Assembly: GCA_017544165.1 (NCBI GenBank)
Contig: JAFYER010000001.1
Coordinates: forward strand, 18,946-82,945
Length of the DNA stretch: 64,000 nt
DNA from: Bacilli bacterium
GTDB taxonomy: Bacteria > Bacillota_I > Bacilli_A > RF39 > UBA660
Direction: 5' to 3'
The translations under genes and the position numbers were made by a program. The notes under the pieces are model-generated. The model searched no databases, had not been told where the DNA came from, and worked only from the letters and a program-made list of their open reading frames with translations. Position 1 is the stretch's first letter. Every line of letters starts with the position of its first letter. Below are positions 3,702 through 57,321 of this stretch, piece after piece.

Positions 3702-4118
3702 ATGAGAACGTATTATATTTTTAATATTAATAAGGAAATGAGCATATTAACAAAAGATAGTCCTTACATGTTATTTAAAAGTCTAGAATCAATTTATAAA
3801 TCAAACCGTAATGATTTATTTATAGCAACTAATCTTTATGAACAACTAGCCTCAAAATTTAACAAGGAACTTGTAAACAATCGTATTTCATGTGACTTTC
3901 AAGAAAATCAATTTTATATGTATACTCATAATAATCATTCTTATTATAATAAATATCGCGACGAAACATGTAATATCGAGGTGAAAAATAGTTATTTAAT
4001 ATGTAAATGTAAAAATAGCCGTTTTGAACTGCTCAAAAGATTAAAAGATTTTAGTCTTTTTGCTTGTGATTTTGAAAACAAAGACTATTTTTGGCTAGAT
4101 GAAGTTTTAAGCATGTAA
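3702..4118 (+). CDS. hypothetical protein (Cys-containing, no recognisable domain)
   Basis: 138-aa ORF with its own upstream AT-rich region and a GGTG RBS. I recognise no motif. Confidence 0.45.
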   Translation: MRTYYIFNINKEMSILTKDSPYMLFKSLESIYKSNRNDLFIATNLYEQLASKFNKELVNNRISCDFQENQFYMYTHNNHSYYNKYRDETCNIEVKNSYLICKCKNSRFELLKRLKDFSLFACDFENKDYFWLDEVLSM

Positions 4119-4172
4119 AAAAGGTTGTTAAAAATGCTTATTTATAGTAAAATTGTTCTTGGGTGATTTTAT

Positions 4173-4382
4173 ATGTTAGAAACAATTATATGGAGTATTA
4201 TTTCCTTAATCGTAGGAATTATATTAGGATTTTTAATTGCAAGAATTGTAACAAAGAAGACTTTAGAGAAAAATCCACCAATTAATGAAAAAATGATTGA
4301 AGCTATGATGAGTAGCATGGGTAGAAAACCAAGCCAAAAACAAGTTAAACAAGTTATGGCTCAAATGAATCGTTTTAAATAA
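4173..4382 (+). CDS. UPF0154 (YneF-like) small membrane protein
   Basis: 69 aa with one N-terminal TM helix. The conserved NPPINEKMIEAMMSSMGRKPSQKQVKQVM stretch is typical of the YneF family. Confidence 0.8.
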   Translation: MLETIIWSIISLIVGIILGFLIARIVTKKTLEKNPPINEKMIEAMMSSMGRKPSQKQVKQVMAQMNRFK

Positions 4383-4405
4383 GATAAACATTCGTTTATC
4401 TTTTT
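4382..4405 (+). terminator. rho-independent terminator
   Basis: AGATAAAC-ATTC-GTTTATCT followed by TTTTT. Confidence 0.7.
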
Positions 4406-4431
4406 GTTGTTTTAGAAAGGGAGTTTTGTAA

Positions 4432-6303
4432 ATGACTTACGAGAATTTAAAAGATTATAAACAAAAATTATTAGAGTTATCTAAAGAGGATAAGAAAAAA
4501 AGAGATGAATATTTAAGACAGTTAGCTAATGGGACTATTCAAGGTCCTCCGGTTGGTTATCCAAGTGTTGATATACCTGCTTTGGCTTACTATAATTTTG
4601 AAGAGTATATTAAGGATAATCCAAAAGAAACAATTACTGAGGCTTTATTTAGAAATAACATAGACCATTTAAAGGATACGGCTATTGAGTATTTTGGAAC
4701 CAAAATTTCATATTATGAATTATTTAAAAATATTTATGCGTTAGTTGATGCGCTTGATGTAAGTGGTGTAAAAAAAGGTGATGGCATAATTGCTACTCTT
4801 CCAGGTATTCCTGAGTCAATGTATTCATTATATGCAGCTGGTTATTTAGGAGCTACATGTGTTTTCATGCTTCCATATTTAAAAAAAGAGTCGATGATTG
4901 CTGATATCAACAAAGATCATAGTAGAATACTTATAATTATGGATGTTTTGTATGAACAATATAAAGAAGTTTATGATGAAGTATTAGAAAAATCAACTTT
5001 AGAAAGAATTATTGTTGTGCCAACCCTTAATTCTTCGAAACTTGGTAAAATAAAAAAAGGTAAAAAATTTCCAGGAACAACACCTTATAATGATTTTGTC
5101 AAAGAAGGGGAAGGTAATATAACTCCCGACATATGTCCTTATGAGGAAAATATGCCAGTAGCAGTTGTCTATTCTTCGGGGACTACTGGTGATATCAAGG
5201 GTGTACTTCTTTCTCATGATTCAATTAATAATTCAGCACTTTCTTATTTGCCATTTGGTTTTGATTTAAAAAGAGGACAAAAGTTTTATCAAACTATACC
5301 AGTATGGACTTCAACTGGTTTAGTTGCTAATGGAACCTCACCGCTTTATTATGGTTCTATTTTACATCAAGATCCTAGATTTGACCCACTTACTTTCTCT
5401 AAAAATATTGGTAAGTCAAAATCTAACTGGGGCATTGGTACAACCGAATTGTTTAATGGTTTAGAGGAAATCAGTAAAAAGAAAGTATTTGGTTTACTTA
5501 CAAAAATGCATATTTTAGATTATACTAAACTTAATAATGCCTATGTCGGAGGAACATTATCAACTCCGAATGATAAGGCTAAATTAAATGAATTGTTCAA
5601 AAGAATTGGCAGTCCTGCTGTTGCTAATAGTAGTTATGGAACATGTGAAAATGGTTCAATTGTAACTGCTGAACTTAATGATTTACCACATTATGATTAT
5701 TCAGTTGGTATCCCAATTCCTGGAGCTACTATAATAGCTATTGATAAGGATGAACATGAACTTCCATACAATACACGTGGCGAACTTGCTGTAAGCACTA
5801 ATTGTGGGATGCTTCGTTACTATAATCGTCCTGATTTAAAAGATGTTTTTTATACTGACGAAACAGATGGCGTGAGATATAAACATACTGGTGATATTGG
5901 CTATGTCAGAAGTGATGGCTTTGTAATATATGAAGGAAGAGCTAATGACATTTCTATAGTAGATGGAACGCAAATCTATAATTTTGATGTAAAACAAGTT
6001 ATAATTAAAGATCCAGATGTGTTTGATTGTGAAGTATTTATGCATGATGAAAAATTATGTGCTCATTTAGTTTTCAAACATCCAGTTGAGGATATAAATC
6101 TCAAATTTGCTCAAATTCAAACTGAAATTATGCATGTTCTTAAAGATGATGTGTATGTACCAGAATTATTTAAAGTACGTACATCATTCCCAATGGCTGC
6201 GTCTACTAAAAGGAATTATAAGGCTTTAAAAGAGGAACAAGATGGATATGTTTATATTCCTAAAAATAGATATGCTAGAGAAAGAAAATGTGATATACTA
6301 TAA
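4432..6303 (+). CDS. AMP-dependent synthetase/ligase (adenylate-forming enzyme, substrate unknown)
   Basis: 623 aa. AMP-binding signature VVYSSGTTGDIKGVLLSH; downstream YKHTGDIGYVRSDGFVIYEGR. Confidence 0.8.
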   Translation: MTYENLKDYKQKLLELSKEDKKKRDEYLRQLANGTIQGPPVGYPSVDIPALAYYNFEEYIKDNPKETITEALFRNNIDHLKDTAIEYFGTKISYYELFKNIYALVDALDVSGVKKGDGIIATLPGIPESMYSLYAAGYLGATCVFMLPYLKKESMIADINKDHSRILIIMDVLYEQYKEVYDEVLEKSTLERIIVVPTLNSSKLGKIKKGKKFPGTTPYNDFVKEGEGNITPDICPYEENMPVAVVYSSGTTGDIKGVLLSHDSINNSALSYLPFGFDLKRGQKFYQTIPVWTSTGLVANGTSPLYYGSILHQDPRFDPLTFSKNIGKSKSNWGIGTTELFNGLEEISKKKVFGLLTKMHILDYTKLNNAYVGGTLSTPNDKAKLNELFKRIGSPAVANSSYGTCENGSIVTAELNDLPHYDYSVGIPIPGATIIAIDKDEHELPYNTRGELAVSTNCGMLRYYNRPDLKDVFYTDETDGVRYKHTGDIGYVRSDGFVIYEGRANDISIVDGTQIYNFDVKQVIIKDPDVFDCEVFMHDEKLCAHLVFKHPVEDINLKFAQIQTEIMHVLKDDVYVPELFKVRTSFPMAASTKRNYKALKEEQDGYVYIPKNRYARERKCDIL

Positions 6304-6321: not shown

Positions 6322-8100
6322 GTGATTGTTACTAAATTAACATGTTTAACTGTTTTTTGCATTATTTTCATGATTTCTTTGATAATTATCTATTTTTCAA
6401 AGCAAAGAATTAAAAGTGAAGAAAATCGTGTTTATAAAATAATGCTAGTTGTAAACTTAATAGGTATTTTTTTGCAAGTTGCTTCGAAATATTGTGCGTT
6501 TTATTATGATGTATTACCTCCAATATTTTGCCAATTTATGTTTAAATCATTCTTAGCTTACTTTAATGTATTTGCAATGCTTATTTTAAACTATGTTATT
6601 ATTTTAGTAATTCCTAAAGAAAAAATCAAAAAGGTCAATACTATTAATTATGTCTTTTTTGGTATTTTGTCTTTAATCACTTATTTTTTACCGATATCTG
6701 TTCATTGTGATTTAGAATCACAAGTTGCCTATACTTATGGCTTTGCGGTTACTTATTCATTTATTGTGGCAGGATTAGCATCATTAATCCTTCTTATATT
6801 GCTACTACCAAATTTGCGTAAAACTTCAAAAAAGAAAGTGTTACCACTTTTCATTTTCTTATTATTTTGCATGGTAGCTATTGCTATTCAAAAAGTAATG
6901 CCAGATCTTATGATGATGTGTTTTGTCGAAAGTTTCCTATGTTTTATAATGTTTCATACCATAGAAAATCCAGATATCATGATGCTTAACGAATTATATG
7001 AAAATCGAAGAATTATTGAAAGTAGCAATCAAGACATGTCTAATTTCTTATTTAAAATTTCTCAAGAGATTAGAAAACCAGTTAAGGAATTAATAGAGAT
7101 AAGCGATGGAAAAAATGATAATGAACTTAAGGAAATTAATAATATTAGTAAACATCTCGACTATTTAATCGATGATGCTCTTGATTTATCAGGTCTTTCT
7201 ACGAAAAAATTAAAACTATATAATAATAAATATAATATACGTAATTTATTTGACGAAATAAGAATTAAAGCTAAAAATAGTATAAATAAAGATACTAAAC
7301 TAGATTATAAAGTAAGTAGTAGTATTCCCGAGTATGTCTATGGCGATGGTGTAAGATTAAAGCAAATCTTAGGGGCTGTTGTAAATAACGCAATTGCTCA
7401 CACCGAAAAAGGGTATATTACCATTGAAATAAACACAATTATTAAATATGATATATGCCGTTTTATTATTGATGTTACCGATTCTGGAAAGGGCATGACA
7501 TTAGATAAAATTAATGAAATACTAAACTTAAAAGAACTTGATTTTGAAGCTGATTTGGATGATAATACCGATAATCTCAAAGTAGTTAAGGTACTTACCA
7601 ATAAAATTGGTGGAAGTTTCATGGTTCAAGCTGACGATAAGGGTACAACTGTAAGTATTACTATTGATCAAAAAATTGTGGAAAATACTGAAACTGAAAT
7701 ATCTAAAAAATTAGATTTATATGAAGAATCACTTCATTTAAATAAAAAGATAATGGTTGTCGATGAAAACATAAAAGAACTTACTCGGATAACCCATTTT
7801 CTCGAGGATAAAGGAAATATTGTATCTTCCTCATTATACGCAAATGATGTAATTGAAAAAATATACAAAAAATATAAATATGATTTAATTATTCTTGATG
7901 ATGAAACAAGTACTTCTAGCGCTTACGATGTTTTAAAAGAACTTAAGAAAATAGAAAAGTTTAATACACCAGTAGTTATAATGATTGATGATAATAAAGA
8001 ATTTATTAAGCTTCATTATTTAAAAGATGGATTTGCCGATGTCATAATGAAATCAAAACTCACAAGTGAACTTGAAAGAGTAATTAAAAAAGAATTATAA
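6322..8100 (+). CDS. membrane sensor kinase-like protein with HATPase_c and a C-terminal receiver-like domain; H-box histidine replaced by Gln
   Basis: 592 aa with about 6 N-terminal TM helices. N box VVNNAIAHTEKG, G1 DSGKGM, G2 GGSF. The H-box position reads FKISQEIRKPV. The receiver-like tail has VVDEN...LIILDDE. Confidence 0.7.
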   Translation: MIVTKLTCLTVFCIIFMISLIIIYFSKQRIKSEENRVYKIMLVVNLIGIFLQVASKYCAFYYDVLPPIFCQFMFKSFLAYFNVFAMLILNYVIILVIPKEKIKKVNTINYVFFGILSLITYFLPISVHCDLESQVAYTYGFAVTYSFIVAGLASLILLILLLPNLRKTSKKKVLPLFIFLLFCMVAIAIQKVMPDLMMMCFVESFLCFIMFHTIENPDIMMLNELYENRRIIESSNQDMSNFLFKISQEIRKPVKELIEISDGKNDNELKEINNISKHLDYLIDDALDLSGLSTKKLKLYNNKYNIRNLFDEIRIKAKNSINKDTKLDYKVSSSIPEYVYGDGVRLKQILGAVVNNAIAHTEKGYITIEINTIIKYDICRFIIDVTDSGKGMTLDKINEILNLKELDFEADLDDNTDNLKVVKVLTNKIGGSFMVQADDKGTTVSITIDQKIVENTETEISKKLDLYEESLHLNKKIMVVDENIKELTRITHFLEDKGNIVSSSLYANDVIEKIYKKYKYDLIILDDETSTSSAYDVLKELKKIEKFNTPVVIMIDDNKEFIKLHYLKDGFADVIMKSKLTSELERVIKKEL

Positions 8101-8421: not shown

Positions 8422-10230
8422 ATGAAAAAGAATAACATTGTATTATCTGTAATAGCCATTATAATGCTTTTAAGTATGTTTGCAATTGCATCATATGCTT
8501 TTTTTGATATAGGTAATTTAAATATAACCAATGTAACAAATTTTACTGCTACATCTGAACGAAATAACATGGTGTTTGATTCTCTTGGTGGAATAATGGA
8601 ATTAAATGTTACGGCCATCAATATGTCAAATAGTTTAAGTGGCAGTGTAGCGGCAGAAAATACAGCAATATTAACAGTTAACTTTCAAGCAAATACTACA
8701 GAAAGTATGGTATGTTCCTACGATATCATGTATGAATGGACGTCGACTGATAAATATCAAGTTCATTCAAATGGTGTAACTGAAAATGAATATACTATTC
8801 AAGCAAGTTTAGCAGCTAATGAACATGTAAGTGAGGGAGTAAACCATATAGCAAACGATTTAGATTTATCAGTAGCAGTAGGAAGTAATAATAGTGCAAT
8901 AGTTGTAAGTGGGGCGCAAATAGATAGTACGGGAACCTCGACGAGCACAGCAGTATGGACCATGACAAGTAAATTTTTTAATGTCGATGCTGATCAAGAC
9001 AATTTAGCTGGTAAAAATTATGCTGGAAGATTTAAAGTAGCAAATGTTTCTTGCGTATCAGGAACAAGACAATTAACTTTGGTGGAGTATATCTCCAATG
9101 AAGCACCAAGAAGTGGGACAGATGCAGTATCAAATAGTCCATGGATATTAACGGAAGATCATACAGGTGAATGGCGTTATGCTGGTAAAAACCCCGATAA
9201 TTATGTTCAGTTTAATGGAGAGCTTTGGCGAATAATTGGTGTCATGCCTAACATGACTTATTGTACCGGAACATATGGAACAGAAACCGAATGTAATACA
9301 ACCAAAACTGGAAATTTAATAAAAATAATAAGAAACCAAACTATCAGCAGTAGCACCCTAAGTTGGGATTATAAACAAACTGGCGTAGGCTCGTCCATAT
9401 CAGAATATGGTTCAAACGACTGGAGTGATAGCCAGTTAATGCTTATGTTAAATGGAACAAACTATTTAAAAACAGGATATGATGTAAATGGCAATAAATT
9501 ACATCAAAGTTATACTATAACAAGTAATGTAGTAAAAGGAAATGGATATAACTATTATAATGCAACATATAGCTATCTAGATGGAAATGGAACAACCGTA
9601 AATATTCCAAGTCAGGCTTCAACAAGCGCATATACAGCAACAAGTGGAAGTGTTTATAAGAAAATAGAAAGCACAGCCCTTGCTCAAATAGCAACAGTAA
9701 AATGGGATTTATATGGAACGAATAGTTATAATAATACCTCTATACCAAGTCTTGGAAGTCCAATCGACTTTTATAATAAAGAAAGAAATATAAATGATCT
9801 TGGAGCAGTATATATAGGAACAACACCAGAAAATAGACCAGTGTATTGGTATGGAAAGATAGGCCTAATGTATCCAAGTGATTATGGTTACGCCACAAAT
9901 GGTGGAAGTACATATAATAGAGATGCTTGTTTAGATTATAGAATGGTCGGCTGGCATAGTGGTGATTATAAAACGGATTGTGCAACAAATAGTTATCTCT
10001 GGTATAATAACATAACGTCTTCTGCTCCAAGGACAAGTGGAACAAATCAATGGACAATGTCTCCGTACTCTGGTCACGCGTACATTGTGTTCTATGTCAG
10101 TAGCAGCGGCGTCGTGCTCATCGTTAGCGCCTACACTACCTATGCGGTCCGCCCCGTCTTGTATCTGAAAGCTGAATTAGGGTTTGGCGGTGGAAATGGA
10201 ACATACAATTCACCATATTTACTAAGTTAG
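8422..10230 (+). CDS. surface protein, paralogue 1 of a 3-member family (N-terminal anchor/signal, C-terminal lectin-like module with VR-like segment)
   Basis: 602 aa with a hydrophobic N-terminus ending ..ASYAFFDIGN (TasA/SipW-type-like). Long blocks are near-identical to 18035..19837 and 49807..52056 (SPWILT.DH.GEWRYAGKNPDNY..FNGELWRIIGVMP; WSDSQLMLMLNG.NYLKTGYDV; VYWYGKIGLMYPSD.GYA). The C-terminal pattern QWT.SP.SG.A..VF.V...G.V....(V/A)RP.LYLKA resembles DUF1566/C-type-lectin-fold ends. Confidence 0.75.
   Translation: MKKNNIVLSVIAIIMLLSMFAIASYAFFDIGNLNITNVTNFTATSERNNMVFDSLGGIMELNVTAINMSNSLSGSVAAENTAILTVNFQANTTESMVCSYDIMYEWTSTDKYQVHSNGVTENEYTIQASLAANEHVSEGVNHIANDLDLSVAVGSNNSAIVVSGAQIDSTGTSTSTAVWTMTSKFFNVDADQDNLAGKNYAGRFKVANVSCVSGTRQLTLVEYISNEAPRSGTDAVSNSPWILTEDHTGEWRYAGKNPDNYVQFNGELWRIIGVMPNMTYCTGTYGTETECNTTKTGNLIKIIRNQTISSSTLSWDYKQTGVGSSISEYGSNDWSDSQLMLMLNGTNYLKTGYDVNGNKLHQSYTITSNVVKGNGYNYYNATYSYLDGNGTTVNIPSQASTSAYTATSGSVYKKIESTALAQIATVKWDLYGTNSYNNTSIPSLGSPIDFYNKERNINDLGAVYIGTTPENRPVYWYGKIGLMYPSDYGYATNGGSTYNRDACLDYRMVGWHSGDYKTDCATNSYLWYNNITSSAPRTSGTNQWTMSPYSGHAYIVFYVSSSGVVLIVSAYTTYAVRPVLYLKAELGFGGGNGTYNSPYLLS
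10061..10160 (+). other. GC-rich, A-poor, NNY-codon hypervariable (VR-like) segment inside paralogue 1
   Basis: By hand count, 57 G+C and 14 A in these 100 nt. Codons 10072-10143 are 21/24 NNY. Confidence 0.7.
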
Positions 10231-10249
10231 AGGCAGTCCGAAGGACAAC

Positions 10250-10278
10250 GTCCCTGCCGGCTCTTAATCCGGCAGGAC
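10250..10278 (+). other. GC-rich stem-loop 20 nt after the stop codon of paralogue 1
   Basis: CCTGCCGG (10253-10260) pairs with CCGGCAGG (10269-10276) across an 8-nt loop. No T-tract follows. Confidence 0.7.
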
Positions 10279-10286
10279 ATATATAT

Positions 10287-10475
10287 GGAGTAATCTTTAC
10301 AAAAAACGAAAGTTCAGGCAACGCCAACAATGTGTTCCGTGTGGTTGGAGATGGTTGTGTGAACAGCAACCCCGCTAACTACGCCAATGGGGCGCGCCCA
10401 ACATTATATCTAAATGCTAATACATTATTTAATGGTGGGACGGGCAAGTGGAATGATTCATATACAATTAAATAA
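10287..10475 (+). pseudogene. promoterless, start-less duplicate of the paralogue C-terminal module (AAY-rich cassette; TR-like or gene remnant)
   Basis: This frame (+2 relative to paralogue 1) is open over 10176-10475 and has no ATG. It encodes GVIFTKNESSGNANNVFRVVGDGCVNSNPANYANGARPTLYLNANTLFNGGTGKWNDSYTIK*. 7 of the 24 codons in 10317-10388 are AAC/AAT. G+C is 57% over 10321-10400. Confidence 0.6.
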
Positions 10476-10532: not shown

Positions 10533-13370
10533 ATGACACCAATAAAGATAATTACAGAATATACATTATTAAAAAGCTTAATTAAAATACCTGAATTAAT
10601 ATCCTTTTTACGTGAAAAAAATATTTCTGTATGTGGAATATGTGATGAAGAACTTTTTGGTGTTATGGAGTTTTATGAAGCTTGTAAGAATAATAATATT
10701 AAACCCATTATTGGTTTATCTATAAATATTGAGGGTCATAATATCTATTTATATCCTAAAAATTATGATGGATATCAAAAATTACTTAAGATTAATACTA
10801 ATAAGTTTAGTAATGAAAATACTTTTGAAAATATCGAAGATAATAATCTTTTTATTGTAATTGATTATAAATCAAAAGATATTTATGAAAAATTTTCTTT
10901 AAAGAAAAATGTTTATATTTCTTATCAAAATAAAGATGAAAAATTAAATGCTTTACTTATAACTAATAATGTTTTATATATAAAAGAAATTAGATGCTTT
11001 AATAAAGAAGATGTTAAGTATTTAGATTATTTAAAAATAATTGGTAGTGATTTTTCTTATTCAAAAGATTGTTATTTTTATAGTAATTGTGATGAAGATG
11101 ATGAAAAAAGATTAAATGATTTTGTAAAACAAATAAATATTGAAATGCCTTTTGATCATAGGTATATTCCTGTATTTAAAAAAGGTATTAATTCTTTGGA
11201 ATATTTAGAGAAATTAGCTACAGCGGGTTTAAATAAAAGGCTTGATGGAAAAGTTTTTAAAAAATATAGTGATCGTTTAAAAGAAGAACTTAATGTTATA
11301 AATGAAATGGGTTTTGTTGATTATTTCTTAATAGTATATGATTACGTTTTATATGCCAAGAAAAATCATGTTTTAATAGGCCCAGGAAGAGGTTCAGCGG
11401 CGGGAAGTTTAGTTAGTTTCGCAATTGGTATTACCGATATTGACCCAATTAAGTATGATTTGTTATTTGCTAGATTCCTAAATCCATATCGAAAGAAAAT
11501 GCCTGATATTGATATCGATTTCGAGGATACTAAAAGAGATATGATAATAGATTATGTAAGAGAAAAATATGGAAGTGATAAAGTTGCTACGGGTCTTACC
11601 TTTAATACTTTAAAAGCAAAACTTGTCTTAAGAGATTTAGCGCGTGGCTTAAAAGTAGATAGTAATCTATTTGAAAAATTTATAAAGTTTATTGATCGAA
11701 ATAAGTCTTTAGAGGAAAATAAAGAAGATAAACTTGTCTTAAAATATTTAGAAATGTATCCTGAACTTAACAAAACATATGATATAGCTATGCATTTAGA
11801 AAATCTTAAGAAAAATGTTTCTACCCATGCTGCTGGTATTGTTATTTCATCAGTTAATCTGGATGAAGTAATACCTGTTTATAAAAATGGTGATGCTATT
11901 CAAACAGGGATTGCCATGGATTATTTAGAAAAATTAGGCTTACTTAAGATGGATTTTCTAGCTCTTAGAAATTTGACAATTATTGATAGCATCCTTAAAA
12001 AAATAAAAGGATTTAATATAAATGAAATAGATTTAAATGATCCAAACGTATATGAAATATTTAAAAATGCTGATACTGATGATATTTTTCAATTCGAATC
12101 GAGATATGCTAAAAATAATTTATTAAAATTACAAGTTTCTAATTTCGAAGAATTATGTATTATGATGGCTTTTTTAAGACCTGGACCTAGTAATCAAATT
12201 GATGAATATGTCAAAAATAAAAATAGTAATGATTATTATATTCATCCTGATTTAAAGAAAACACTTCAAAGTACGTATGGAGTAATCATTTTTCAAGAAC
12301 AAGTCATGAAAATACTTGAAATTGTTGGGGGATACTCTTTATATGAAGCGGATAATATTCGAACAGCGATGAGTAAGAAAAAAGAAGATATTATCGAAAA
12401 AGAAAGAGAAAAGTTTATTTCTAATGCTCTAGAAAAAGGATATGAAAAAGATTTTGTAATAGATATCTTTGAAAAAATCAAAAGATTTGCGGAGTATGGT
12501 TTTAATAAAGCTCACTCAGTATCTTATGCTTATATTTCTTATGAACTAGCATATTTTAAGACATACTATCCAAATGAGTTTTATATATCACTTTTAGATT
12601 TTGCTAAAGATAATAATGATCGAGTAAGACTATTTAATCTTTTGAAAAAAAATAAAGTAAAAATATTAAAACCTAATTTAAATGTATCTAGTTTTAATTA
12701 TCAATTTAAGAATAATTATTTATTACTTCCAGTAAGTATGGTTAGAACTATTCAAGGAAATGTTTTAAAGGATATTCTTGATAAAAAAGATTCTAGTTTT
12801 AGTGATATTTATGATTTTATGTTAAAATGTCATAATATTTTAAATGATAAAATTTATAATGATTTAGTTAGAAGTGGCCTTTTAGACATCTTTGGTTTTA
12901 ATCATCAAACATTAATTCAAAATAAAGATACATTATTTAATTATGCTATTTTAGAAGATCCTAATGCACAAAAACCACTTTTAAGGCAGTATCCTGAATA
13001 TCCTTTAGAAGAAATTAGAAAAGATGAACTTGATTCTTTTGGCTTTTATATTGGCAATCATCCAACTTCAGTTTATAAAAACGTTATTAAAGTAAAAGAT
13101 ACGCAAAAATATTTATTTAAAAATATTGATATGGCACTACTTGTCAAAAAAGTAACATGTATCAAAACTAAAAATAATGAGGAAATGACCTTTATACAAG
13201 CTGAGGATGAAACAGGTAGTATTGAAATAACTTTATTTCCCGAAGTTTGGAAAAAATGCCCAAGTATCAAAAATAATGATATAATACTTATTAATGGAAA
13301 ATCATCGAAAAGATATGATAAATATCAAATAATTGTTAATAAGGTAAAATTAGAAAGAAGTGAAGCATGA
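10533..13370 (+). CDS. dnaE: DNA polymerase III alpha subunit, DnaE type
   Basis: 945 aa with the characteristic polymerase core (GPGRGSAAGSLVSFAIGITDIDP; PDIDIDF; HAAGIVIS; FNKAHSVSYA). The N-terminal PHP ligands are degenerate. Confidence 0.9.
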   Translation: MTPIKIITEYTLLKSLIKIPELISFLREKNISVCGICDEELFGVMEFYEACKNNNIKPIIGLSINIEGHNIYLYPKNYDGYQKLLKINTNKFSNENTFENIEDNNLFIVIDYKSKDIYEKFSLKKNVYISYQNKDEKLNALLITNNVLYIKEIRCFNKEDVKYLDYLKIIGSDFSYSKDCYFYSNCDEDDEKRLNDFVKQINIEMPFDHRYIPVFKKGINSLEYLEKLATAGLNKRLDGKVFKKYSDRLKEELNVINEMGFVDYFLIVYDYVLYAKKNHVLIGPGRGSAAGSLVSFAIGITDIDPIKYDLLFARFLNPYRKKMPDIDIDFEDTKRDMIIDYVREKYGSDKVATGLTFNTLKAKLVLRDLARGLKVDSNLFEKFIKFIDRNKSLEENKEDKLVLKYLEMYPELNKTYDIAMHLENLKKNVSTHAAGIVISSVNLDEVIPVYKNGDAIQTGIAMDYLEKLGLLKMDFLALRNLTIIDSILKKIKGFNINEIDLNDPNVYEIFKNADTDDIFQFESRYAKNNLLKLQVSNFEELCIMMAFLRPGPSNQIDEYVKNKNSNDYYIHPDLKKTLQSTYGVIIFQEQVMKILEIVGGYSLYEADNIRTAMSKKKEDIIEKEREKFISNALEKGYEKDFVIDIFEKIKRFAEYGFNKAHSVSYAYISYELAYFKTYYPNEFYISLLDFAKDNNDRVRLFNLLKKNKVKILKPNLNVSSFNYQFKNNYLLLPVSMVRTIQGNVLKDILDKKDSSFSDIYDFMLKCHNILNDKIYNDLVRSGLLDIFGFNHQTLIQNKDTLFNYAILEDPNAQKPLLRQYPEYPLEEIRKDELDSFGFYIGNHPTSVYKNVIKVKDTQKYLFKNIDMALLVKKVTCIKTKNNEEMTFIQAEDETGSIEITLFPEVWKKCPSIKNNDIILINGKSSKRYDKYQIIVNKVKLERSEA

Positions 13371-17967: not shown

Positions 17968-18034
17968 ATTTGGTATTTGTATTATATAAAAATAATGATA
18001 TAATGTTATTGTGTAATAAGATAGGGTGTATCAA

Positions 18035-19837
18035 ATGAATAATAATAGGCCTAAAAAAGCTTACATAGTGATAATTGCTAGTATTATTCTTTTAGTATTA
18101 ATAGGAATTGCGTCTTATTCTTTTTTTAATATTGGAAATTTAAGCGTTTCAAATGTTGTAAATCTTAATGCTGTTACAGAGGAAAATAATATGGTGTTTG
18201 ATACATTGGGTGGGAATACTAGCCTTAATGTTACAATAGACAATATGCTTGAAAGTGCTGCAGGTACGATTGCTGCTGAAAACACTACGACACTTAATGT
18301 AACTTTTCAAGCAAATACAAGTTATAGTGTAGTTTGTTCTTATGATATTGTTTGGGAATGGACATCCACAGATAAATACCAAACACATACTTCTGGCGTA
18401 ACTGAAAATGAAATAACTATCCATGCAGAGTTAGATGGAAATGGGGCTGAAGGTACAAATAATATTCAAAGCGAAACGGATTTAGCCGATTTTGTAGGAA
18501 GCCAAACTAGCAAAACTGTAGTAAGTAGAGCCGCAATTGCTTCAACTGGAAGCACTGCAAATACGGTAACATGGTATTTAACTACTAGGTTTTATAATGT
18601 CGATGCTGATCAAAGCACTTTAGCTGGAAAAAATTATACGGGCAGATTCAAAGTAACTAATGTTGATTGTCAAAAAGGTACAGTACAAGTATCATTAGCA
18701 AATCATATTAGACATAACTTGCCTAAAAGTGGAACCGATGTAGTATCAAATAGTCCATGGATATTAACATCTGATCATGCTGGTGAATGGCGATATGCAG
18801 GTAAAAATCCAGATAACTACATATCTTTTAATGGTGAATTATGGCGAATAATAGGGGTAATGCCTGGCATGACTTATTGTACTGGAGAATATGGAAACGC
18901 AAATGAATGTGATACCACCGCAATCGGTAGTTTAGTTAAAATAATTAGAAATGATGCTTTAGGTATTTTTTCCTGGGACTATAAGCAAATAGGCGTAGGA
19001 TCATCGTTGTCTGATAATGGTTCTAGTGACTGGAGCGATAGTCAGTTAATGCTAATGTTAAACGGAATTAATTATTTAAAAACTGGATATGATGTTGATG
19101 GAAATAAATTACATGATGATTATTTCAATTTTCAAGGAATTATTAAGGATGCAAGTGGGAATGGATATTATAACGTATCGAAGCATTATTTAGATGAAAA
19201 TGGAACAACAATTTATATGCCGGCCAGTGCAACAATTAATGATGGATATACTGGAACTAGTGGGACAATTTCAAAGAAGATAGAAAGTAGTGCGTTTTCT
19301 CAAATAGCAACAGTAAAATGGGATTTGTATGGAGCAAATAATTATTCAACAGCTGCTGAGGGAAACACTTCCGCATTATATAATAAAGAAAGGAATATTA
19401 ATAATACAGGATCAGTATATATAGGAACAGCATCAGAAAAAAGAGCAGTATATTGGTATGGGAAAATAGGCTTAATGTATCCAAGCGATTTGGGATATGC
19501 AACTAACGGAGGAAGCACTTATGATAGAAACACATGTTTAGGATATCAAATAAAAGGATGGAATGTAAGTTCTTACAAAACGGATTGTATGAGAAATAGT
19601 TATTTATGGTTTTTAAATATAACTTCCTCTTCTCCAGGTAATTCAGGAAAAAACCAATGGACAATGATTCAAAATTCTAGTGTTTCTAGCAATATAATAT
19701 CTATTATATCATTAGGATTGATAAGTGATTTAAACGCAAAAGGTTCAGCTAATGTTAGACCCGCTTTGTATTTAAAAGCTGATACGCAGTTTGTTGGTGG
19801 AACGGGTACTTATAACGATCCATATACAATAGAGTAA
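18035..19837 (+). CDS. surface protein, paralogue 2 (AT-rich, non-VR-like C-terminal segment)
   Basis: About 600 aa. I chose the ATG at 18035, preceded by AGGGTG (the track ORF starts at GTG 18026). It shares the conserved blocks of paralogues 1 and 3. The C-terminal segment NQWTMIQNSSVSSNIISIISLGLISDLNAKGSANVRPALYLKA is encoded by ordinary AT-rich codons. Confidence 0.75.
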   Translation: MNNNRPKKAYIVIIASIILLVLIGIASYSFFNIGNLSVSNVVNLNAVTEENNMVFDTLGGNTSLNVTIDNMLESAAGTIAAENTTTLNVTFQANTSYSVVCSYDIVWEWTSTDKYQTHTSGVTENEITIHAELDGNGAEGTNNIQSETDLADFVGSQTSKTVVSRAAIASTGSTANTVTWYLTTRFYNVDADQSTLAGKNYTGRFKVTNVDCQKGTVQVSLANHIRHNLPKSGTDVVSNSPWILTSDHAGEWRYAGKNPDNYISFNGELWRIIGVMPGMTYCTGEYGNANECDTTAIGSLVKIIRNDALGIFSWDYKQIGVGSSLSDNGSSDWSDSQLMLMLNGINYLKTGYDVDGNKLHDDYFNFQGIIKDASGNGYYNVSKHYLDENGTTIYMPASATINDGYTGTSGTISKKIESSAFSQIATVKWDLYGANNYSTAAEGNTSALYNKERNINNTGSVYIGTASEKRAVYWYGKIGLMYPSDLGYATNGGSTYDRNTCLGYQIKGWNVSSYKTDCMRNSYLWFLNITSSSPGNSGKNQWTMIQNSSVSSNIISIISLGLISDLNAKGSANVRPALYLKADTQFVGGTGTYNDPYTIE

Positions 19838-48310: not shown

Positions 48311-48410
48311 AGCAAATGCAACCGCTCTTGGATGGTGCGGTATATAAATTATTCCAAATGCGAAATGTTAATCGCTCCCGGATGGTGCGATCAATAAAAT
48401 ATTCCGGAGG
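48311..48410 (+). ncRNA. type III antitoxin-like RNA: two tandem ~50-nt repeats
   Basis: The unit AAATG..(A/T)(A/C)CGCTC..GGATGGTGCG(G/A)....ATAAA.TATTCC occurs twice with a 50-nt period (GGATGGTGCG at 48330 and 48380; ATTCC at 48351 and 48401). Each unit has a CCGC/GCGG or TCGC/GCGA mini-stem. Confidence 0.6.
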
Positions 48411-48419
48411 AAAATTTCA

Positions 48420-48453
48420 GAAAACTTTTATCTTTTGATAGAGTTTTCTTTTT
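48420..48453 (+). terminator. intrinsic terminator between antitoxin repeats and toxin ORF
   Basis: GAAAACTTTTATC-TTTT-GATAGAGTTTTC followed by TTTTT. This placement is typical of type III TA loci. Confidence 0.7.
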
Positions 48454-48491
48454 CTTTGTGATAAAATTGCTTTACTAGGAGGTTTTGGATT

Positions 48492-48959
48492 ATGGAAGTA
48501 AGAACAGGATACATTTATCATATAAAAGATGAGTTTTTTGATAAGATAAATGATAAAGGTTTAATGATTAACCATGAAAATGGCAAATCAAGGCCCACAT
48601 ATTTTACTATTAAAGATAAAGATATATTATGGTTTATTCCTTTAAGTAGTAAAGTTGAAAAATATGAAAAAATAATAGATTCAAAAATAAAAAAGTATGG
48701 TTCTTGTTAATCTATTATGATTAGCGAAATTGCTGGTAAAAAATCAGTTATCTTGATTCAAAATGCTTTTCCAACCTTAGAAAAATATATTGATCACCCC
48801 CATATGTTGGATGGAAAACCACTAAAAGTTATTAATACGCTCAAAAATGAAATATTAGATAATTTCAATTATTTAATGGAATTAAAAAAAGCTGGTAAAA
48901 ACTTATTTTTTCCTGATGTTGACAAAATAAAACAAATTATGTTAGAGGAATTAGAATGA
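48492..48959 (+). pseudogene. ToxN/AbiQ-family (type III TA) endoribonuclease toxin interrupted by one in-frame TAA
   Basis: Track ORFs 48492..48710 and 48717..48959 are in the same frame, separated only by TAA (48708-48710) plus two codons. The N-terminal half has the family pattern (YIYHIKDEFFDKI...GKSRPTYF.....WFIPLSSKVEKY). The combined length is about 155 aa. Confidence 0.55.
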
Positions 48960-49018: not shown

Positions 49019-49129
49019 AGCAAATGTTAGCCGCTTATGGATGGCGCGGGTTATAAATGATTCCAATCGCGAAATGTTAGTCGCTTACGGGTGGTGCGAG
49101 TTATAAATGATCCCGATAGAAAATGTTAG
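49019..49129 (+). ncRNA. second (orphan) copy of the antitoxin repeat array, 2 full units plus a partial third
   Basis: AAATGTTAG occurs at 49022, 49072 and 49121. GGATGGCGCG and GGGTGGTGCG are spaced 50 nt apart. A TATAAT lies at 48988-48993. No toxin ORF follows. Confidence 0.55.
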
Positions 49130-49162
49130 GAAACTTTTATCTTTTGATAGAGTTTTCTTTTT
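49130..49162 (+). terminator. terminator copy 2 (near-identical to 48420-48453)
   Basis: GAAACTTTTATC-TTTT-GATAGAGTTTTC followed by TTTTT. The following ~25 nt are also identical to copy 1 except for one base. Confidence 0.65.
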
Positions 49163-49216
49163 CTTTGCGATAAAATTGCTTTACAATAATATAATTAAAA
49201 TTAGAATAATATTTTA

Positions 49217-49745: not shown

Positions 49746-49806
49746 AAGCAACCATAATTGGTTGTTTTTTTTTGCGTTTTAGGTTATATTTATTATAGGT
49801 GTGAAA

Positions 49807-52056
49807 ATGAAAAAAGTATCAATATATATAGTGATTATTATTGCAGTACTAGCAGTTATTATTGGCCTTGCGGCTTATGCAATGCGAGCTCCAATTGTTA
49901 ATGTTGAAAACTTGAACACTAACACTTATTTGGGTGGACAAGTATCACTTACAACTTCTGGTGGTGGAGCAATGTCTAGCAGTATATCCACACTTTTAAT
50001 GTCGGAAGCTAGTGCTAATAATAAAATAGAAGTTGCTAATAACATTTTAAATGTAACACTTACTACCTCTAATGATAAACAAATATGTTGCTCATACGAT
50101 ATTGTTTGGGAATGGGATCAAACAAACGTAACAGCAAATCAATATAGTTTAACATCGGGTGCTACAAAAGAATTTACCTTATCAGGCTCTTATAGTGATT
50201 ATTATGGAAATTCTACAGCCAATACATTAGGTGGTTCAAATATTTCTTGGTTCGAAAGACAATTACAAAACTATAATGCATCAGCACGTTCTTCATCAAT
50301 GACTAGAGCTACAATTTGCAATAATCCAACCCAATCCTCCAAAGTTAGAACACATTCATGGAATCTTGCGACAAATTTTTATAATCTTAATATAAATCAA
50401 GATGCTTTTAAACAATCAGCATTTTCTGGTAAAGCTAAAGTTGCTAATGTTTCATGTACAAATCAAAAAACATTTGCCGATTACTTAGCAAGTGGTGCTC
50501 CAAGAAGTGGAATCGATGCTGTATCAAGTAGTCCATGGATATTAACATCAGATCATCCAGGTGAATGGCGCTATGCCGGCAAAAACCCAGATAACTATAT
50601 ATCTTTTAATGGAGAACTATGGCGAATAATCGGCGTAATGCCAGATATGACATATTGTACAGGTGAATATGGTAATGCAAATGAGTGCAATACAACTGCA
50701 ACAGGAAGTTTAGTTAAAATAATTAGAAACGATTCATTAGGATCATTTTTATTAGATTATAAACAAACAGGAGTAGGCTCATCCATAACAACTGCTGGGT
50801 CCAACGATTGGAGTGATAGTCAATTAATGTTAATGTTAAATGGAACAAATTATTTAAAAACAGGGTATGATGTAAATAATACTAAGTTGCATAATTCCTA
50901 TACAATAACAAGTAATATAGTCGCAGGAAATGGATATAATTTTTACAATGCAACATATAGCTATTTAGATGGGAATGGAACAACAGTATATGTACCTAGT
51001 AGTGCAACAACAAGTAGCTATACCGCAACAAGTGGAACGGTCCCAAAGAAAATAGGAACAACAGCACTATCCCAAATAGCAACCGTAAAATGGGATTTAT
51101 ATGGAACAAGTAGTTTTACAACTGCAGCAGAAGGAAGTCCAGCAGCCTTTTATAATAAAGAAAGAAATATTGGTAACACAGGTGCTGTTTATAATGTAAC
51201 TGCAACTGGACGTGAAAAAAGAGCAGTATATTGGTATGGAAAGATAGGACTAATGTATCCAAGTGATTATGGATATGCTAGTAATGGCGATGGAAGTACG
51301 TATAGTAGAAGTGATTGTATGGGAACAGAAATGTATAACTGGGATAGCGCAGAAGCATGTTATGAAAATGATTGGATGTATTACGTAAATGCAACAGCCT
51401 CATCAGTGGGAACAAGTAACACGTATCAATGGGCCTTAAGCCCGCATTCAGGTAATGCCGCCAATGCTTTCTGCGTGGATATTGATGGTTATGTGGCCAA
51501 CTGCAGCGTCGTCGACGACTCCAATGGGGTCCGGACCGTCTTGTATCTTAAAGCTGATACAACATTTACTGGTGGATCAGGTACATATAATGATCCTTTT
51601 ATAATAGATTCAAGATTGTATTGGCTTGCTTATGGTACTTATACATATCCAAATCATGGTGGTACTTTATATACTAGTGGCTCAGATACTGATTCTCTCG
51701 TATATATCGGTCAGGATACAAAACATTATGCTTGCGCAACTATTCAAAATCAAGAAATATGTTTATCTCAGCCATATGCACAATATGGTCTTAGGGGTCA
51801 CACTGTAGGTACAAATTTTACTACTGAACAGCAAAATAGTATTGCTAATGCTTTGAAAAAAGTCTTTGCCGATGCGGGAGTTAGCGTTGATATTGAGAAC
51901 GATTGTTATAAGAATTCTGGATATGTTAATTGCTACGATCCTAATGCTGAAATATATTGTGGGGTTAATAGTGATGGATCTATTGACTGTGGTGATGAAG
52001 AGGAAAATTACGAATATTGTTGGCTTAACCCTGATGGTACAGCTGAGTGTGGATAA
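49807..52056 (+). CDS. surface protein, paralogue 3 (divergent N-terminal third, VR-like segment, extra Cys-rich C-terminal extension)
   Basis: About 749 aa (ATG 49807 after AGGTG). The central 350 aa are highly similar to paralogues 1 and 2. After ..VRTVLYLKADTTFTGGSGTYNDPFII there is an additional ~170 aa with 10 or more Cys (..CYKNSGYVNCYDPNAEIYCGVNSDGSIDCG..CWLNPDGTAECG). Confidence 0.75.
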   Translation: MKKVSIYIVIIIAVLAVIIGLAAYAMRAPIVNVENLNTNTYLGGQVSLTTSGGGAMSSSISTLLMSEASANNKIEVANNILNVTLTTSNDKQICCSYDIVWEWDQTNVTANQYSLTSGATKEFTLSGSYSDYYGNSTANTLGGSNISWFERQLQNYNASARSSSMTRATICNNPTQSSKVRTHSWNLATNFYNLNINQDAFKQSAFSGKAKVANVSCTNQKTFADYLASGAPRSGIDAVSSSPWILTSDHPGEWRYAGKNPDNYISFNGELWRIIGVMPDMTYCTGEYGNANECNTTATGSLVKIIRNDSLGSFLLDYKQTGVGSSITTAGSNDWSDSQLMLMLNGTNYLKTGYDVNNTKLHNSYTITSNIVAGNGYNFYNATYSYLDGNGTTVYVPSSATTSSYTATSGTVPKKIGTTALSQIATVKWDLYGTSSFTTAAEGSPAAFYNKERNIGNTGAVYNVTATGREKRAVYWYGKIGLMYPSDYGYASNGDGSTYSRSDCMGTEMYNWDSAEACYENDWMYYVNATASSVGTSNTYQWALSPHSGNAANAFCVDIDGYVANCSVVDDSNGVRTVLYLKADTTFTGGSGTYNDPFIIDSRLYWLAYGTYTYPNHGGTLYTSGSDTDSLVYIGQDTKHYACATIQNQEICLSQPYAQYGLRGHTVGTNFTTEQQNSIANALKKVFADAGVSVDIENDCYKNSGYVNCYDPNAEIYCGVNSDGSIDCGDEEENYEYCWLNPDGTAECG
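51441..51545 (+). other. GC-rich NNY-codon hypervariable (VR-like) segment inside paralogue 3
   Basis: By hand count, 57 G+C in 51441-51540. Codons 51451-51525 are 23/25 NNY. Confidence 0.7.
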
Positions 52057-54886: not shown

Positions 54887-54896
54887 AAAGGTAAAA

Positions 54897-57317: not shown

Positions 57318-57321
57318 TTAG

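Follow-up and report, generated by a model that had tools for sequence, protein, structure and literature searches.

The window, by which we mean the whole 64,000-nucleotide stretch of DNA analysed here, derives from the MAG of an uncultured rumen Bacilli bacterium of low G+C and carries three paralogous surface-protein genes (Table 1). The first of these, paralogue 1 (par1), encodes an N-terminal membrane anchor followed by a variable N-terminal half and a conserved region spanning residues ~215–602, the C-terminal part of which (residues ~415–602) is a DUF6273-like domain. Par1 is one member of a large family of paralogous surface proteins that occurs in uncultured rumen and gut Bacilli. Over 2,000 homologues were found in uncultured Bacilli, and the MAG, which has IKR74_ locus tags, contains at least eight paralogues. 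Family genes have housekeeping neighbours, e.g. dnaE, polC, mraZ and greA, and the halves of family members have been shuffled, as in P0044 and P0050, whose C-terminal halves are the same and whose N-termini differ. A phage origin of the family was considered and rejected, since no relatives were present in IMG/VR or INPHARED and the scaffold pattern described below was missing from viral contigs. Elsewhere in the window, Rfam, Pfam and PADLOC searches of the segment at 48.3–49.2 kb all came back empty.

Table 1. Features of the par1 locus and of the equivalent segments in paralogues 2 and 3 (positions are those of the window).
Feature	Position	Strand	Basis
Paralogue 1 (par1, P0001, 602 aa)	8422..10230	+	ORF and translation
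par1 variable region (VR), 93 nt, gapless alignment to the genome's template repeat (TR)	~10063..10155	+	composition, NNY codons, TR comparison
IMH-like 3' boundary: G+C run GCGGTCCGCCCC, then GTCTTGTATCTGAAAGCT	10144..10173	+	comparison with cognate cassette
Post-stop element: G+C hairpin (stem 10253-10260 / 10269-10276, loop CTCTTAAT) and GGAGTAATCTTTAC spacer	10231..10306	+	homologous to 5' flank of the functional TR
Pseudo-TR, degenerate TR copy (...SGNANNVFRVVGDGCVNSNPANYANGARP)	10307..10399	+	alignment to the L107 cassette
Paralogue C-terminal tail and stop (TLYLNANTLFNGGTGKWNDSYTIK, stop), fused to the pseudo-TR in place of post-TR RNA	10400..10475	+	repeat family D6, alignment
dnaE-type DNA polymerase III alpha gene	10533..13370	+	identical L001 gene, Pfam annotation
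Paralogue 2 equivalent segment (ORF 18026-19837), A+T-rich, 28% G+C	19670..19762	+	alignment, composition
Paralogue 3 VR (ORF 49801-52056), G+C-rich, NNY-rich, scaffold different, one codon longer	51441..51536	+	alignment, composition

The 3' end of par1 stands out by composition. Positions 10061–10160, in frame with the par1 ORF, contain C33, T29, G24 and A14, i.e. 57% G+C by base count, and form the peak G+C spot of a 29% G+C window. Relative to 100-nt windows taken across the whole window (G+C 29.0 ± 6.2, A 37.7 ± 5.9), this corresponds to z = +4.5 for G+C and z = -4.0 for A. A count of 57 G+C was attained in only 10 of ~64,000 such windows, at ~10057 and at ~51441, where the corresponding segment of paralogue 3 lies, and only seven windows held 14 or fewer A, of which the five listed all fall within 10058–10062. 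The codons of 10072–10143 (GGT CAC GCG TAC ATT GTG TTC TAT GTC AGT AGC AGC GGC GTC GTG CTC ATC GTT AGC GCC TAC ACT ACC TAT) are of the NNY form in 21 of 24 cases, against an ORF-wide third-position pyrimidine fraction of 0.52 (binomial p = 2.8e-4); the non-pyrimidine endings are GCG, GTG and GTG. These recounts agree exactly with the original prediction, which had proposed a DGR-like variable region here on the basis of its 57 G+C, its 14 A and its 21 pyrimidine-ending codons with two GTG and one GCG as exceptions. Its description of the surroundings was also borne out: the flanks NQWTMSP... and ...VRPVLYLKA are conserved in all three paralogues, the paralogue 3 segment is of like composition, and the predicted scaffold, G-x-A-x-x-V-F-x-V-x-x-x-G-x-V, agrees with the non-Asn positions of the template repeat identified below (SGNANNVFNVNSTGNV...).

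We found that variability within the family is concentrated in the same segment. Across 96 homologues, mean entropy was 2.75 bits at par1 residues 549–575 vs 1.24 elsewhere, with peaks at residues 549, 552, 554, 555, 558, 560, 562, 564, 566–569, 571, 572 and 574; with the exception of 562, 564 and 569, the peak residues are Asn codons (AAY) in the TRs found. Amino acids out of reach of NNY codons (K, E, Q, M and W) accounted for 4.3% of residues at 549–575, compared with 12.6% elsewhere and with 18% in the remaining high-entropy columns. Par1 and its paralogue P0062 have common scaffold nucleotides, and their differences fall almost entirely at positions 1 and 2 of NNY codons. Two paralogues depart from this composition, the VRs of paralogue 2 and P0051 having 28–39% G+C, and the paralogue 2 segment is a VR that has decayed or was never diversified.

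The ~15 hypervariable residues are displayed by the conserved C-terminal domain. Par1 matched Pfam DUF6273 with 18.8 bits over residues 525–583 and P0030, a family member discussed below, with 21.0 bits, both below the cut-off of 23.5, and the two matches cover the last 40–60 profile positions. Using AF2 models of par1 regions (pLDDT 95 and 90), Foldseek searches with residues 415–602 recovered gut-phage DUF6273 proteins from BFVD with probability 1.0 (E = 3.5e-4 to 5.5e-4), at a TM of only ~0.4, while residues 215–602 gave a weak match to the Legionella Lcl (DUF1566) domain (probability 0.8 over 42 columns) and weak matches to classical C-type lectin domains. A PDB sequence-profile search returned no match. 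The C-terminal domain is thus predicted, from sequence and models, to be DUF6273-like and hence C-type-lectin-like, a consistent resemblance that lies below curated-threshold membership; the lectin-like fold first suggested for it finds its match in the DUF6273 phage proteins and, weakly, in Lcl and C-type lectins. Published work describes DUF6273 as a C-type-lectin-like domain targeted by DGRs (PMC11792537, PMC10743442).

A complete DGR lies on another contig of the same MAG (L107), in the order target gene P0030 (MBR4230882.1, IKR74_01830), hairpin, TR, MutS-like ORF, bAvd and RT. The RT, P0201 (MBR4230886.1, 354 aa), four accession numbers after the target, matches RVT_1 at 2e-18 and contains the motifs LPIGNMSSQ and YMDD (GKGLPIGNMSSQ, CYMDD), which are of the IGxxxSQ and YxDD types. 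The bAvd gene is a 121-aa ORF overlapping the RT start that matched PF22296 at E = 2e-7 (31.9 bits; cut-off 40) and is also bAvd in precomputed Pfam annotation; the putative MutS-like ORF (MSL) matched MutS_I weakly, at E = 1.6e-3, under the Pfam cut-off. An Rfam search of the cassette RNA returned nothing meaningful. The TR (93 nt, L107 5645–5737) and the cognate VR (L107 5402–5494) differ at 17 TR adenines and at 0 other positions. In a second sample (SAMN15830045, contig L112) the TR is identical, and its VR differs from it at 13 adenine sites and at 0 others. The two samples are near-clonal, with 19 differences over 9,483 nt between the contigs, 17 of them within the VR; likewise, 13 of 13 amino-acid differences between P0030 and P0241 lie in the VR. 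Since the cognate VR differs between two near-clonal samples, this DGR is active now or was very recently. The match between cognate TR and VR continues to the end of GGCGTCCGGCCC and breaks off at once (GTCTTG... in the VR vs AATTTT... in the TR).

The cassette is tied to the window's contig by MAG binning, assembly co-occurrence and near-identical shared elements, and not by a closed genome. The RT is in the same NCBI MAG as paralogues located on a contig with the window's genes (accessions MBR4230549.1 and MBR4231072.1; P0060, IKR74_00095, and P0051, IKR74_02825), and cassette and window contig co-occur in assemblies ERZ28019129 and ERZ28653687. Inside the window, a six-frame scan for IGxxxSQ/YxDD motifs and tblastn with the cassette proteins detected no RT, and tblastn detected no homology to MSL or bAvd. 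Relatives carry canonical cassettes of this TR design (L011/L104, L083, L084, L093, L101, L105 and L113), and a metagenome scan with an AAY-type TR pattern yielded 23 loci and led to the cassettes. Among 75 GTDB loci (1 Mb), no RT adjoined family genes and only L011 had a clean TR/VR pair; the ORF after the L011 TR had been a candidate MutS start, an assignment we rejected: it is the DGR's small MutS-like accessory ORF, which in complete cassettes lies ahead of avd and RT. The DGR-type RT anticipated in the original prediction therefore exists in the same MAG, with bAvd and a MutS-like ORF adjoining it. The anticipated template was recovered in part: a 93-nt TR exists and its AAY codons coincide with the family's hypervariable columns, but the par1 VR has 11–12 non-adenine mismatches to it. 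With RT, TR and fold together, a DGR origin of the variable region is favoured.

Aligned to the L107 TR, the par1 VR has 17–18 mismatches at TR adenines and those 11–12 at other bases, an adenine bias with binomial p = 0.004, and the non-adenine differences are spread along the entire VR; 10063–10155 is thus not equal to the only TR found outside TR adenines. The same segment is NNY-restricted and A-depleted at the AAY positions of the family's TRs and its scaffold is conserved, as in a DGR-written VR. Paralogue 3 presents a similar picture, with 16 adenine-site and 12 non-adenine differences from the TR and an indel. At the 3' boundary, the par1 G+C run GCGGTCCGCCCC differs from the TR's GGCGTCCGGCCC at 3 of 12 nt, and the subsequent GTCTTGTATCT is the same as in the cognate VR. 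The relatives' cassettes would speak for a DGR origin of the VR even if the MAG were chimeric, and the composition of 10061–10160 is the footprint of mutagenic retrohoming.

A TR-like, A-rich copy that the original prediction did not mention lies ~150 nt downstream of the VR. Between the stop codon and the end of the hairpin, the window is nearly identical to L107, with one loop substitution; the adjoining spacer is also conserved, though it has several changes and a 2-nt indel. L107 cassette positions 3–168 and window 10223–10390 share 82.7% identity. This post-stop element is also kept after P0062, where it is better conserved than the coding tail, and a G+C hairpin occurs ~40 nt 5' of the TR in L083, L086, L093, L100 and L104, with differing stem sequences, and is present in L113. 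We rejected the hairpin as an intrinsic terminator, as it has no T-run and was not called in a terminator scan. The pseudo-TR differs from the functional TR at 13 adenine sites and 11 non-adenine sites, and from the par1 VR at ~18 and ~31, respectively (hand count from the alignment). It was rejected as the cognate TR of the par1 VR, since non-adenine mismatches exceed adenine-site mismatches and the post-TR RNA and RT genes are missing. Its locus has only the 5' flank and TR body in common with the functional locus: the functional TR is followed by a conserved ~145-nt segment (L107 vs L113) that does not occur in the window, and dnaE stands where MSL, avd and RT would be in a complete cassette. 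Judged by sequence comparison, the segment 3' of par1 appears to be a decayed copy of a TR locus (hairpin, spacer and pseudo-TR) without post-TR RNA, MSL, avd and RT, which were probably lost through recombination between a TR and a paralogue's VR.

The par1 VR was identical in seven contigs from at least five assemblies, these being consensus assemblies from one study cohort in which minority read variants are invisible. Two of the contigs, L001 and L002, represent the pair of samples with differing cognate VRs and are 100% identical to the window over 17–20 kb, and L003 has 3 SNPs, none in the VR; 10063–10155 therefore did not vary between close genomes, including samples with a changed cognate VR. 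Seven non-adjacent family genes, four from this MAG and three from related metagenome contigs, were represented by near-identical allele pairs, and these differed outside the VR only, except for a single I-to-K in the decayed VR of paralogue 2. Given the 11–12 non-adenine differences across the VR and its invariance in the sampled contigs, we infer that the extant TR does not now rewrite par1. Occasional retrohoming to par1 may occur, as the IMH-like boundary and the post-stop element are kept.

We read 10063–10155 as a DGR-written VR of a surface-protein target gene and consider it most likely the orphaned and frozen product of past DGR activity. An AAY-rich TR RNA would have served as template for an error-prone RT, which inserts wrong nucleotides opposite adenines, and the mutagenised cDNA would have overwritten the VR as far as the G+C-rich 3' boundary (IMH), the G+C-rich, A-poor NNY composition being the trace that such retrohoming would leave. 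The template for par1 would have been a related but different TR allele, hereafter type A, with the scaffold common to par1 and P0062.

Alternatively, the par1 VR could be an active remote target, rewritten in trans either by the extant TR despite its mismatches or from an unseen type A TR or DGR elsewhere. We regard this as an unlikely, though not negligible, reading. The VR is still G+C-rich and A-poor, whereas paralogue 2 and P0051 have decayed, which argues for recent writing; a common template is implied for par1 and P0062, whose scaffolds share their non-adenine departures from the known TR; the IMH-like boundary and conserved post-stop hairpin persist; and chromosomal DGRs with remote targets are documented. 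Retrohoming from the only TR found would, however, erase the non-adenine mismatches, the VR is the same in 7 of 7 contigs, including those from the two samples with a rewritten cognate VR, and only one RT of this clade could be linked to contigs of the MAG. A type A TR was absent from 115 loci, from the cassette of the closest RT relative (L113) and from the results of two metagenome scans, the one with the par1/P0062 scaffold pattern giving 0 matches; a second DGR or TR in an unsampled part of the genome is therefore possible.

Recombination could enter in two ways. In contig L110, the par1 3' end is joined directly to the functional TR-RT cassette at a conserved 41-nt stop/hairpin stretch, window ~10228–10268 running into L107 from ~5606 onward; if the join is real, the par1 VR occupies the cognate slot in some strains. 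Diversification might then be two-tiered, the RT-adjacent slot being rewritten by adenine mutagenesis and the other paralogues serving as a reservoir swapped by recombination at that 41-nt junction. This is a speculative scheme to which we give little weight. Each reservoir paralogue would keep a DGR-written VR and the junction, exactly where L110 joins, and the window's hairpin, pseudo-TR and tail would be the footprint of exchanges between TR and VR or, alternatively, an intermediate stage in which a TR is being gained or lost from a duplicated target 3' end. It is more doubtful still that gene conversion between paralogues, or from a silent 3' cassette, coupled with diversifying selection, produced the VR without reverse transcription, the downstream fragment being the silent donor. 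Such a donor would fit the VR-like segment, complete gene tail and stop codon at 10307–10475, the shuffled N- and C-terminal halves of P0044 and P0050, and the exchange suggested by L110, but it leaves unexplained the NNY restriction, the A depletion and the exclusion of K, E, Q, M and W, the exact coincidence of the variable columns with the AAY codons of TRs adjoining bAvd and RT, and the 17:0 and 13:0 adenine-only patterns of the cognate pair. Recombination may move VRs around; it does not write them. A foreign G+C-rich insertion or chance compositional outlier, which the bare composition alone would allow, can be dismissed: this z = 4.5 segment keeps the reading frame, matches the paralogues and the TR codon by codon in the alignment, and has counterparts with the same anomaly at the equivalent position of paralogue 3, P0062 and P0030.

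The preferred reading, a frozen VR written by past DGR activity, leaves the known DGR mechanism unchanged, and the DGR described here is a clear example of an already known system. It does indicate that composition alone (G+C-rich, A-poor and NNY-only in an A+T-rich genome) can flag DGR VRs whose RT and TR are on another contig; VRs remote from the RT tend to be missed by RT-centred DGR pipelines. It also adds a chromosomal DGR with MSL and Avd accessories and DUF6273-type targets from uncultured rumen Bacilli, each genome holding at least eight target-like paralogues. Inside a single population, frozen sister VRs can be cleanly contrasted with a VR still undergoing rewriting, and a decayed TR locus is present as well, which is useful for thinking about the gain, orphaning and loss of DGR targets.

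The system resembles the BPP-1 DGR (mtd VR, avd, TR, brt) in its adenine-specific mutagenesis from an AAY-rich TR, the position of the VR at the C-terminal end of a C-type-lectin-type fold, the G+C-rich IMH-type 3' boundary where TR and VR diverge, and an Avd-family accessory with an RT bearing IGxxxSQ and YMDD. Unlike the phage-borne BPP-1 element, it is chromosomal, is ordered target, TR, MSL, avd, RT, and has an extra MutS-like ORF, a conserved hairpin 5' of the TR and many paralogous target-like genes, the window's copy not being cognate to the TR. The BPP-1 hairpin sits just 3' of the VR. The DUF6273 targets of gut phages (Faecalibacterium prophages, PMC11792537; 'tentaclins', PMC10743442) likewise have the VR at the C-terminal end of DUF6273, but they are phage receptor-binding or tail proteins, and the par1 family was not found in IMG/VR or INPHARED.

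The Treponema denticola DGR (TvpA) offers a parallel in combining one RT and TR with several paralogous C-type-lectin-type targets across the chromosome; its element has an HRDC accessory gene where the Bacilli cassette has MSL. Wu et al. (PMC5758913) assigned non-adjacent targets, seven in Treponema, only where they had A-to-N differences from the TR, with minor exceptions allowed, and the non-adjacent Bacilli paralogues, unlike those of T. denticola, would fail this criterion with their 11–12 non-adenine differences. In the same work (Wu et al. 2018), MSL-containing DGRs, including the Legionella pneumophila DGR, form 'Architecture D'. The Bacilli system differs from these in its DUF6273-like target from a Firmicute surface-protein family and in the weakness of its MutS_I match (E = 1.6e-3), and is like them in having a small MutS-like ORF together with avd beside the RT, in a cellular rather than a phage setting.

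The composition claimed for 10061–10160 was confirmed on recounting: the 100 nt comprise C33, T29, G24 and A14 (57% G+C), and 21/24 codons at 10072–10143 end in a pyrimidine, the exceptions being one GCG and two GTG. The segment is in frame with ORF 8422–10230, which encodes the surface protein P0001 (paralogue 1), and the three paralogues with conserved flanks described in the original prediction are present. Per 100 nt the window averages 29 ± 6 G+C and 38 ± 6 A, placing the segment at z = +4.5 and z = −4.0, respectively, and 57 G+C is attained at only 10 of ~64,000 positions, all of them here or in the equivalent segment of paralogue 3, at ~51441. The NNY excess at 10072–10143 is also marked relative to the gene's own third-position usage (p = 2.8e-4).

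The surrounding DNA is chromosomal and from a low-G+C Firmicute, carrying tkt, dnaE, polC, mraZ/rsmH, lon, ddl, V-ATPase genes, greA and Tad-pilus genes. P0001 has >2,000 homologues, which are multi-copy in MAGs of uncultured gut and rumen Bacilli (e.g. 'Mycoplasma sp. CAG:956', Ca. Ventrenecus and Tb.RUG.19), and an identical protein is encoded on 7 contigs from a ruminant-gut study, the longest being 173,496 bp. In an alignment of 96 homologues, residues 549–575 are far more variable than any other stretch within the conserved half (mean entropy 2.75 bits versus 1.24 elsewhere), their variable columns being interleaved with a conserved scaffold (S550, A553, V556, F557, V559, G563, V565, A570 and V576-R577-P578). 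K, E, Q, M and W, the five residues for which no NNY codon exists, account for 4.3% in the variable columns, compared with 12.6% elsewhere and 18% in the remaining high-entropy columns. A sub-threshold Pfam match to DUF6273, known from the literature as a C-type-lectin-like target domain in diversity-generating retroelement (DGR) systems, with the variable region (VR) at its C-terminal end, spans residues 525–583 and covers the last 60 profile positions.

AlphaFold models of residues 215–602 and 415–602 have pLDDT values of 95 and 90. Using Foldseek, the C-terminal model matched gut-phage DUF6273 proteins (probability 1.0, E down to 3.5e-4), while the larger model matched the C-terminal (DUF1566) domain of Legionella Lcl (probability 0.8) and, weakly, classical C-type lectin domains. 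The top PDB match of both was a domain of the Thomasclavelia ramosa IgA peptidase (9qa6; for residues 215–602, window 9064–10227, E = 3e-7 over 359 columns, TM 0.40), a match suggesting that the conserved region shares its scaffold with an enzyme, from a related gut Firmicute, that binds host proteins. Within the family, P0044/P0050 and P0066/P0068, pairs from related loci, have identical C-terminal halves including the VR and unrelated N-terminal domains, and there are also forms of ~750 aa with a Cys-rich C-terminal extension, such as paralogue 3, and of ~375 aa without the VR domain; together these point to extensive domain shuffling. Paralogue 3 lies directly upstream of a Tad-type pilus cluster (52151–56599), and the paralogue P0051 lies ~9 kb downstream of T2SSF and prepilin-peptidase genes (L081, 1–796).

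No reverse transcriptase (RT) motif was found in any frame of the 64-kb window or in the 1 Mb flanking 75 family genes in GTDB genomes. Self-comparison of related loci, filtered on adenine-biased mismatches, identified one (L011) with a VR at the C-terminus of a family gene and, 220 nt past the stop codon, a 100-nt repeat encoding APNSSNANNVFNVNTTGYVNNNNVNNTNGVRPA; 20/24 mismatches between the two fall at repeat adenines. A metagenome scan with a pattern modelled on this repeat (AAY GCN AAY AAY GTN TTY AAY GTN AAY) returned 23 loci. In five low-G+C loci an RT of ~350 aa lies roughly 900 nt downstream of the template repeat (TR), with the motifs LPIGNMTSQ and YMDD in L083, L084, L093 and L101, and LPIGNLSSQ and YMDD in L105. 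The full order, visible in L083, L093 and L101, is family target, TR, a 126-aa ORF, a 117–119-aa ORF and RT; L105 is visible from the TR on, its two ORFs being 107 and 117 aa long.

A search with the L093 RT identified P0201 (354 aa; MBR4230886.1), an RT for which, as for the paralogue P0030 (MBR4230882.1; IKR74_01830), the longest contig is 135,184 bp. The DGR RT sought on the original prediction is present in the same MAG, on a different contig. Two further paralogues of this MAG tie it to the window: on L001, P0060 (IKR74_00095) ends ~900 bp before the window begins, and P0051 (IKR74_02825) is on the 173-kb contig with the window's genes. The cassette and the window contig also co-occur in assemblies ERZ28019129 and ERZ28653687. 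The pairing of a MutS-like ORF (MSL) with avd in this cassette, L107, corresponds to 'Architecture D' (Wu et al. 2018, PMC5758913). A segment of ~145 nt after the TR (L107 5738–5880; about 390–535 in the related cassette L113) is ~90% identical between the two cassettes, whose RTs are only 75% identical; it probably forms a structured 3' portion of the DGR RNA, comparable to the BPP-1 spacer region, and no Rfam family was found for it.

Features of the same-MAG DGR cassette (L107 coordinates) and of the mobilisable island (window coordinates)
Locus	Feature	Position	Strand	Remarks
L107	Target gene	3806–5569		
L107	VR	5402–5494		Inside target gene
L107	Stop codon, then G+C hairpin, then spacer			Between target gene and TR
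L107	TR	5645–5737		
L107	112-aa ORF			After TR
L107	129-aa MutS_I-like ORF			After 112-aa ORF
L107	bAvd			After MutS_I-like ORF, before RT
L107	RT	6894–7958		GKGLPIGNMSSQ + CYMDD
L107	nusB			After RT
Island	Large serine recombinase	57337–59166		
Island	Mob_Pre relaxase	59415–60761		
Island	ORF without Pfam match	60777–62258	minus	

The predicted template repeat was found as a 93-nt TR with adenine-only differences, but from the VR of P0030 rather than that of paralogue 1. All 17 mismatches between the L107 VR and TR are at TR adenines. Its counterpart from sample SAMN15830045 (L112) has an identical TR, from which the VR departs at 13 positions, 13/13 adenines. Over 9,483 aligned nt the two cassettes differ at 19 positions, 17 of them inside the VR, and at the protein level 13/13 differences in the cognate target are in the VR. 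The DGR of this MAG is active, or was so very recently.

The VR of paralogue 1 (10063–10155) has a different status. Gapless comparison with the L107 TR gave 17–18 mismatches at TR adenines and 11–12 at other positions; the expected adenine bias therefore stands (p = 0.004; A at 30/87 TR positions), while the expected match outside adenines does not. The non-adenine differences (GCC->GCG, GGT->GGC, GCT->GCC, ACT->AGC, GGC->GCG, CGG->CGC and several third-position C->T) are scattered over the whole VR and would be erased by retrohoming from this TR. P0062, a paralogue on the same 173-kb contig, has scaffold nucleotides in common with paralogue 1 and differs from it almost only at NNY codon positions 1–2, so on sequence comparison the two VRs look like products of one TR allele, other than the extant one. 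No TR allele fitting this scaffold was found in two metagenome scans, the 115 fetched loci or the L113 cassette.

Nor was the predicted variation at these codons seen, the VR being identical in 7/7 contigs. L001 (SAMN15830045) and L002 (SAMN15830042) are 100% identical to the window over 17–20 kb, while their cognate VRs differ; the 3 SNPs of L003 all fall outside the VR. For seven non-adjacent members of the family, four of them in this MAG and three on related metagenome contigs, near-identical allele pairs show 1–14 residue differences outside the VR, the sole change within it being one I-to-K in the already decayed VR of paralogue 2 (ORF 18026–19837). With VR G+C of 28% and 39%, respectively, paralogue 2 and P0051 appear to show what a VR becomes after long decay in an A+T-rich genome; the VRs of paralogue 1, P0062 and paralogue 3 are still fresh. 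Since the extant TR does not match and the VR shows no change across the sampled population, in which the paralogue next to the RT is being rewritten, the VR of paralogue 1 most likely represents the orphaned product of a related TR allele.

Overlooked in the original prediction was a TR-like copy at 10307–10399, encoding ...SGNANNVFRVVGDGCVNSNPANYANGARP. Window 10223–10390 is homologous to the stop codon, hairpin, spacer and TR of the cassette (82.7% identity), identical from stop codon through hairpin bar one loop substitution, and on this homology we regard the segment as a second, paralogous version of the TR locus. The copy is ruled out as a working TR, having 13 adenine and 11 non-adenine differences from the functional TR and running, past ...CGCCCA, into the family C-terminal tail and stop (TLYLNANTLFNGGTGKWNDSYTIK*) where the functional TR has the ~145-nt post-TR segment; it is likewise ruled out as the template of paralogue 1, to whose VR it is not cognate. 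No MSL, avd or RT remnants were found in the 64-kb window, and dnaE follows next. Recombination between a TR and a paralogue's VR probably deleted the rest of a cassette downstream of paralogue 1; alternatively, the copy could be an intermediate in the birth of a TR.

The G+C hairpin is conserved in position, ~40–60 nt 5' of the TR, its stem differing between clades and its loop between paralogues. The stem is CCTGCCGG/CCGGCAGG in the window (10253–10276), L107 (about 5592–5617) and L113, and CTCGCCC/GGGCGAG in L083, L086, L093, L100 and L104. The hairpin persists past the stop codon of P0062 without any TR (L080, after 11785); it may form the 5' end of the TR RNA, mark a processing site or act as a recognition element. 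One 4.9-kb contig (L110; ERZ27256850 k141_2316338) matches the window exactly as far as ~10266 and L107 exactly from the hairpin loop on, placing the 3' end of paralogue 1 in front of the functional TR-MSL-avd-RT cassette. The crossover lies within a 41-nt stretch common to both loci (window about 10228–10268), and the contig is either an assembly chimera or a real, recent recombinant.

Elsewhere in the window, the 1 kb separating a U32 peptidase gene from greA holds two ~190-nt leader-like copies, 86% identical (48322–48475 and 49031–49184), each with two tandem ~45-nt sub-repeats bearing small G+C hairpins, then an intrinsic terminator. Adjacent ORFs of 72 aa (48492–48710) and 80 aa (48717–48959), in different frames and 6 nt apart, follow the first copy. 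The layout at 48.3–49.2 kb is reminiscent of type III toxin-antitoxin loci, which combine RNA repeats, a terminator and a ToxN/AbiQ-like gene; searches of the region with Rfam, Pfam and PADLOC were all negative. A small mobilisable island (56663–62258) adjoins tRNA-Thr (56663–56736), and GC skew is locally inverted within it, at 61–62 kb.

Together, the RT, Avd and TR in the genome and the DUF6273-like fold support the original reading of 10061–10160 as the variable region of a DGR target, carried on a domain that resembles DUF6273 and C-type lectins. The system belongs to a known kind: it is a DGR in the chromosome, equipped with the accessory genes MSL and avd and accompanied by numerous paralogues that resemble targets. 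Its unusual points are limited to the degenerate TR-like copy, the hairpin conserved on the 5' side of the TR and the slot-swapping that L110 may reflect.
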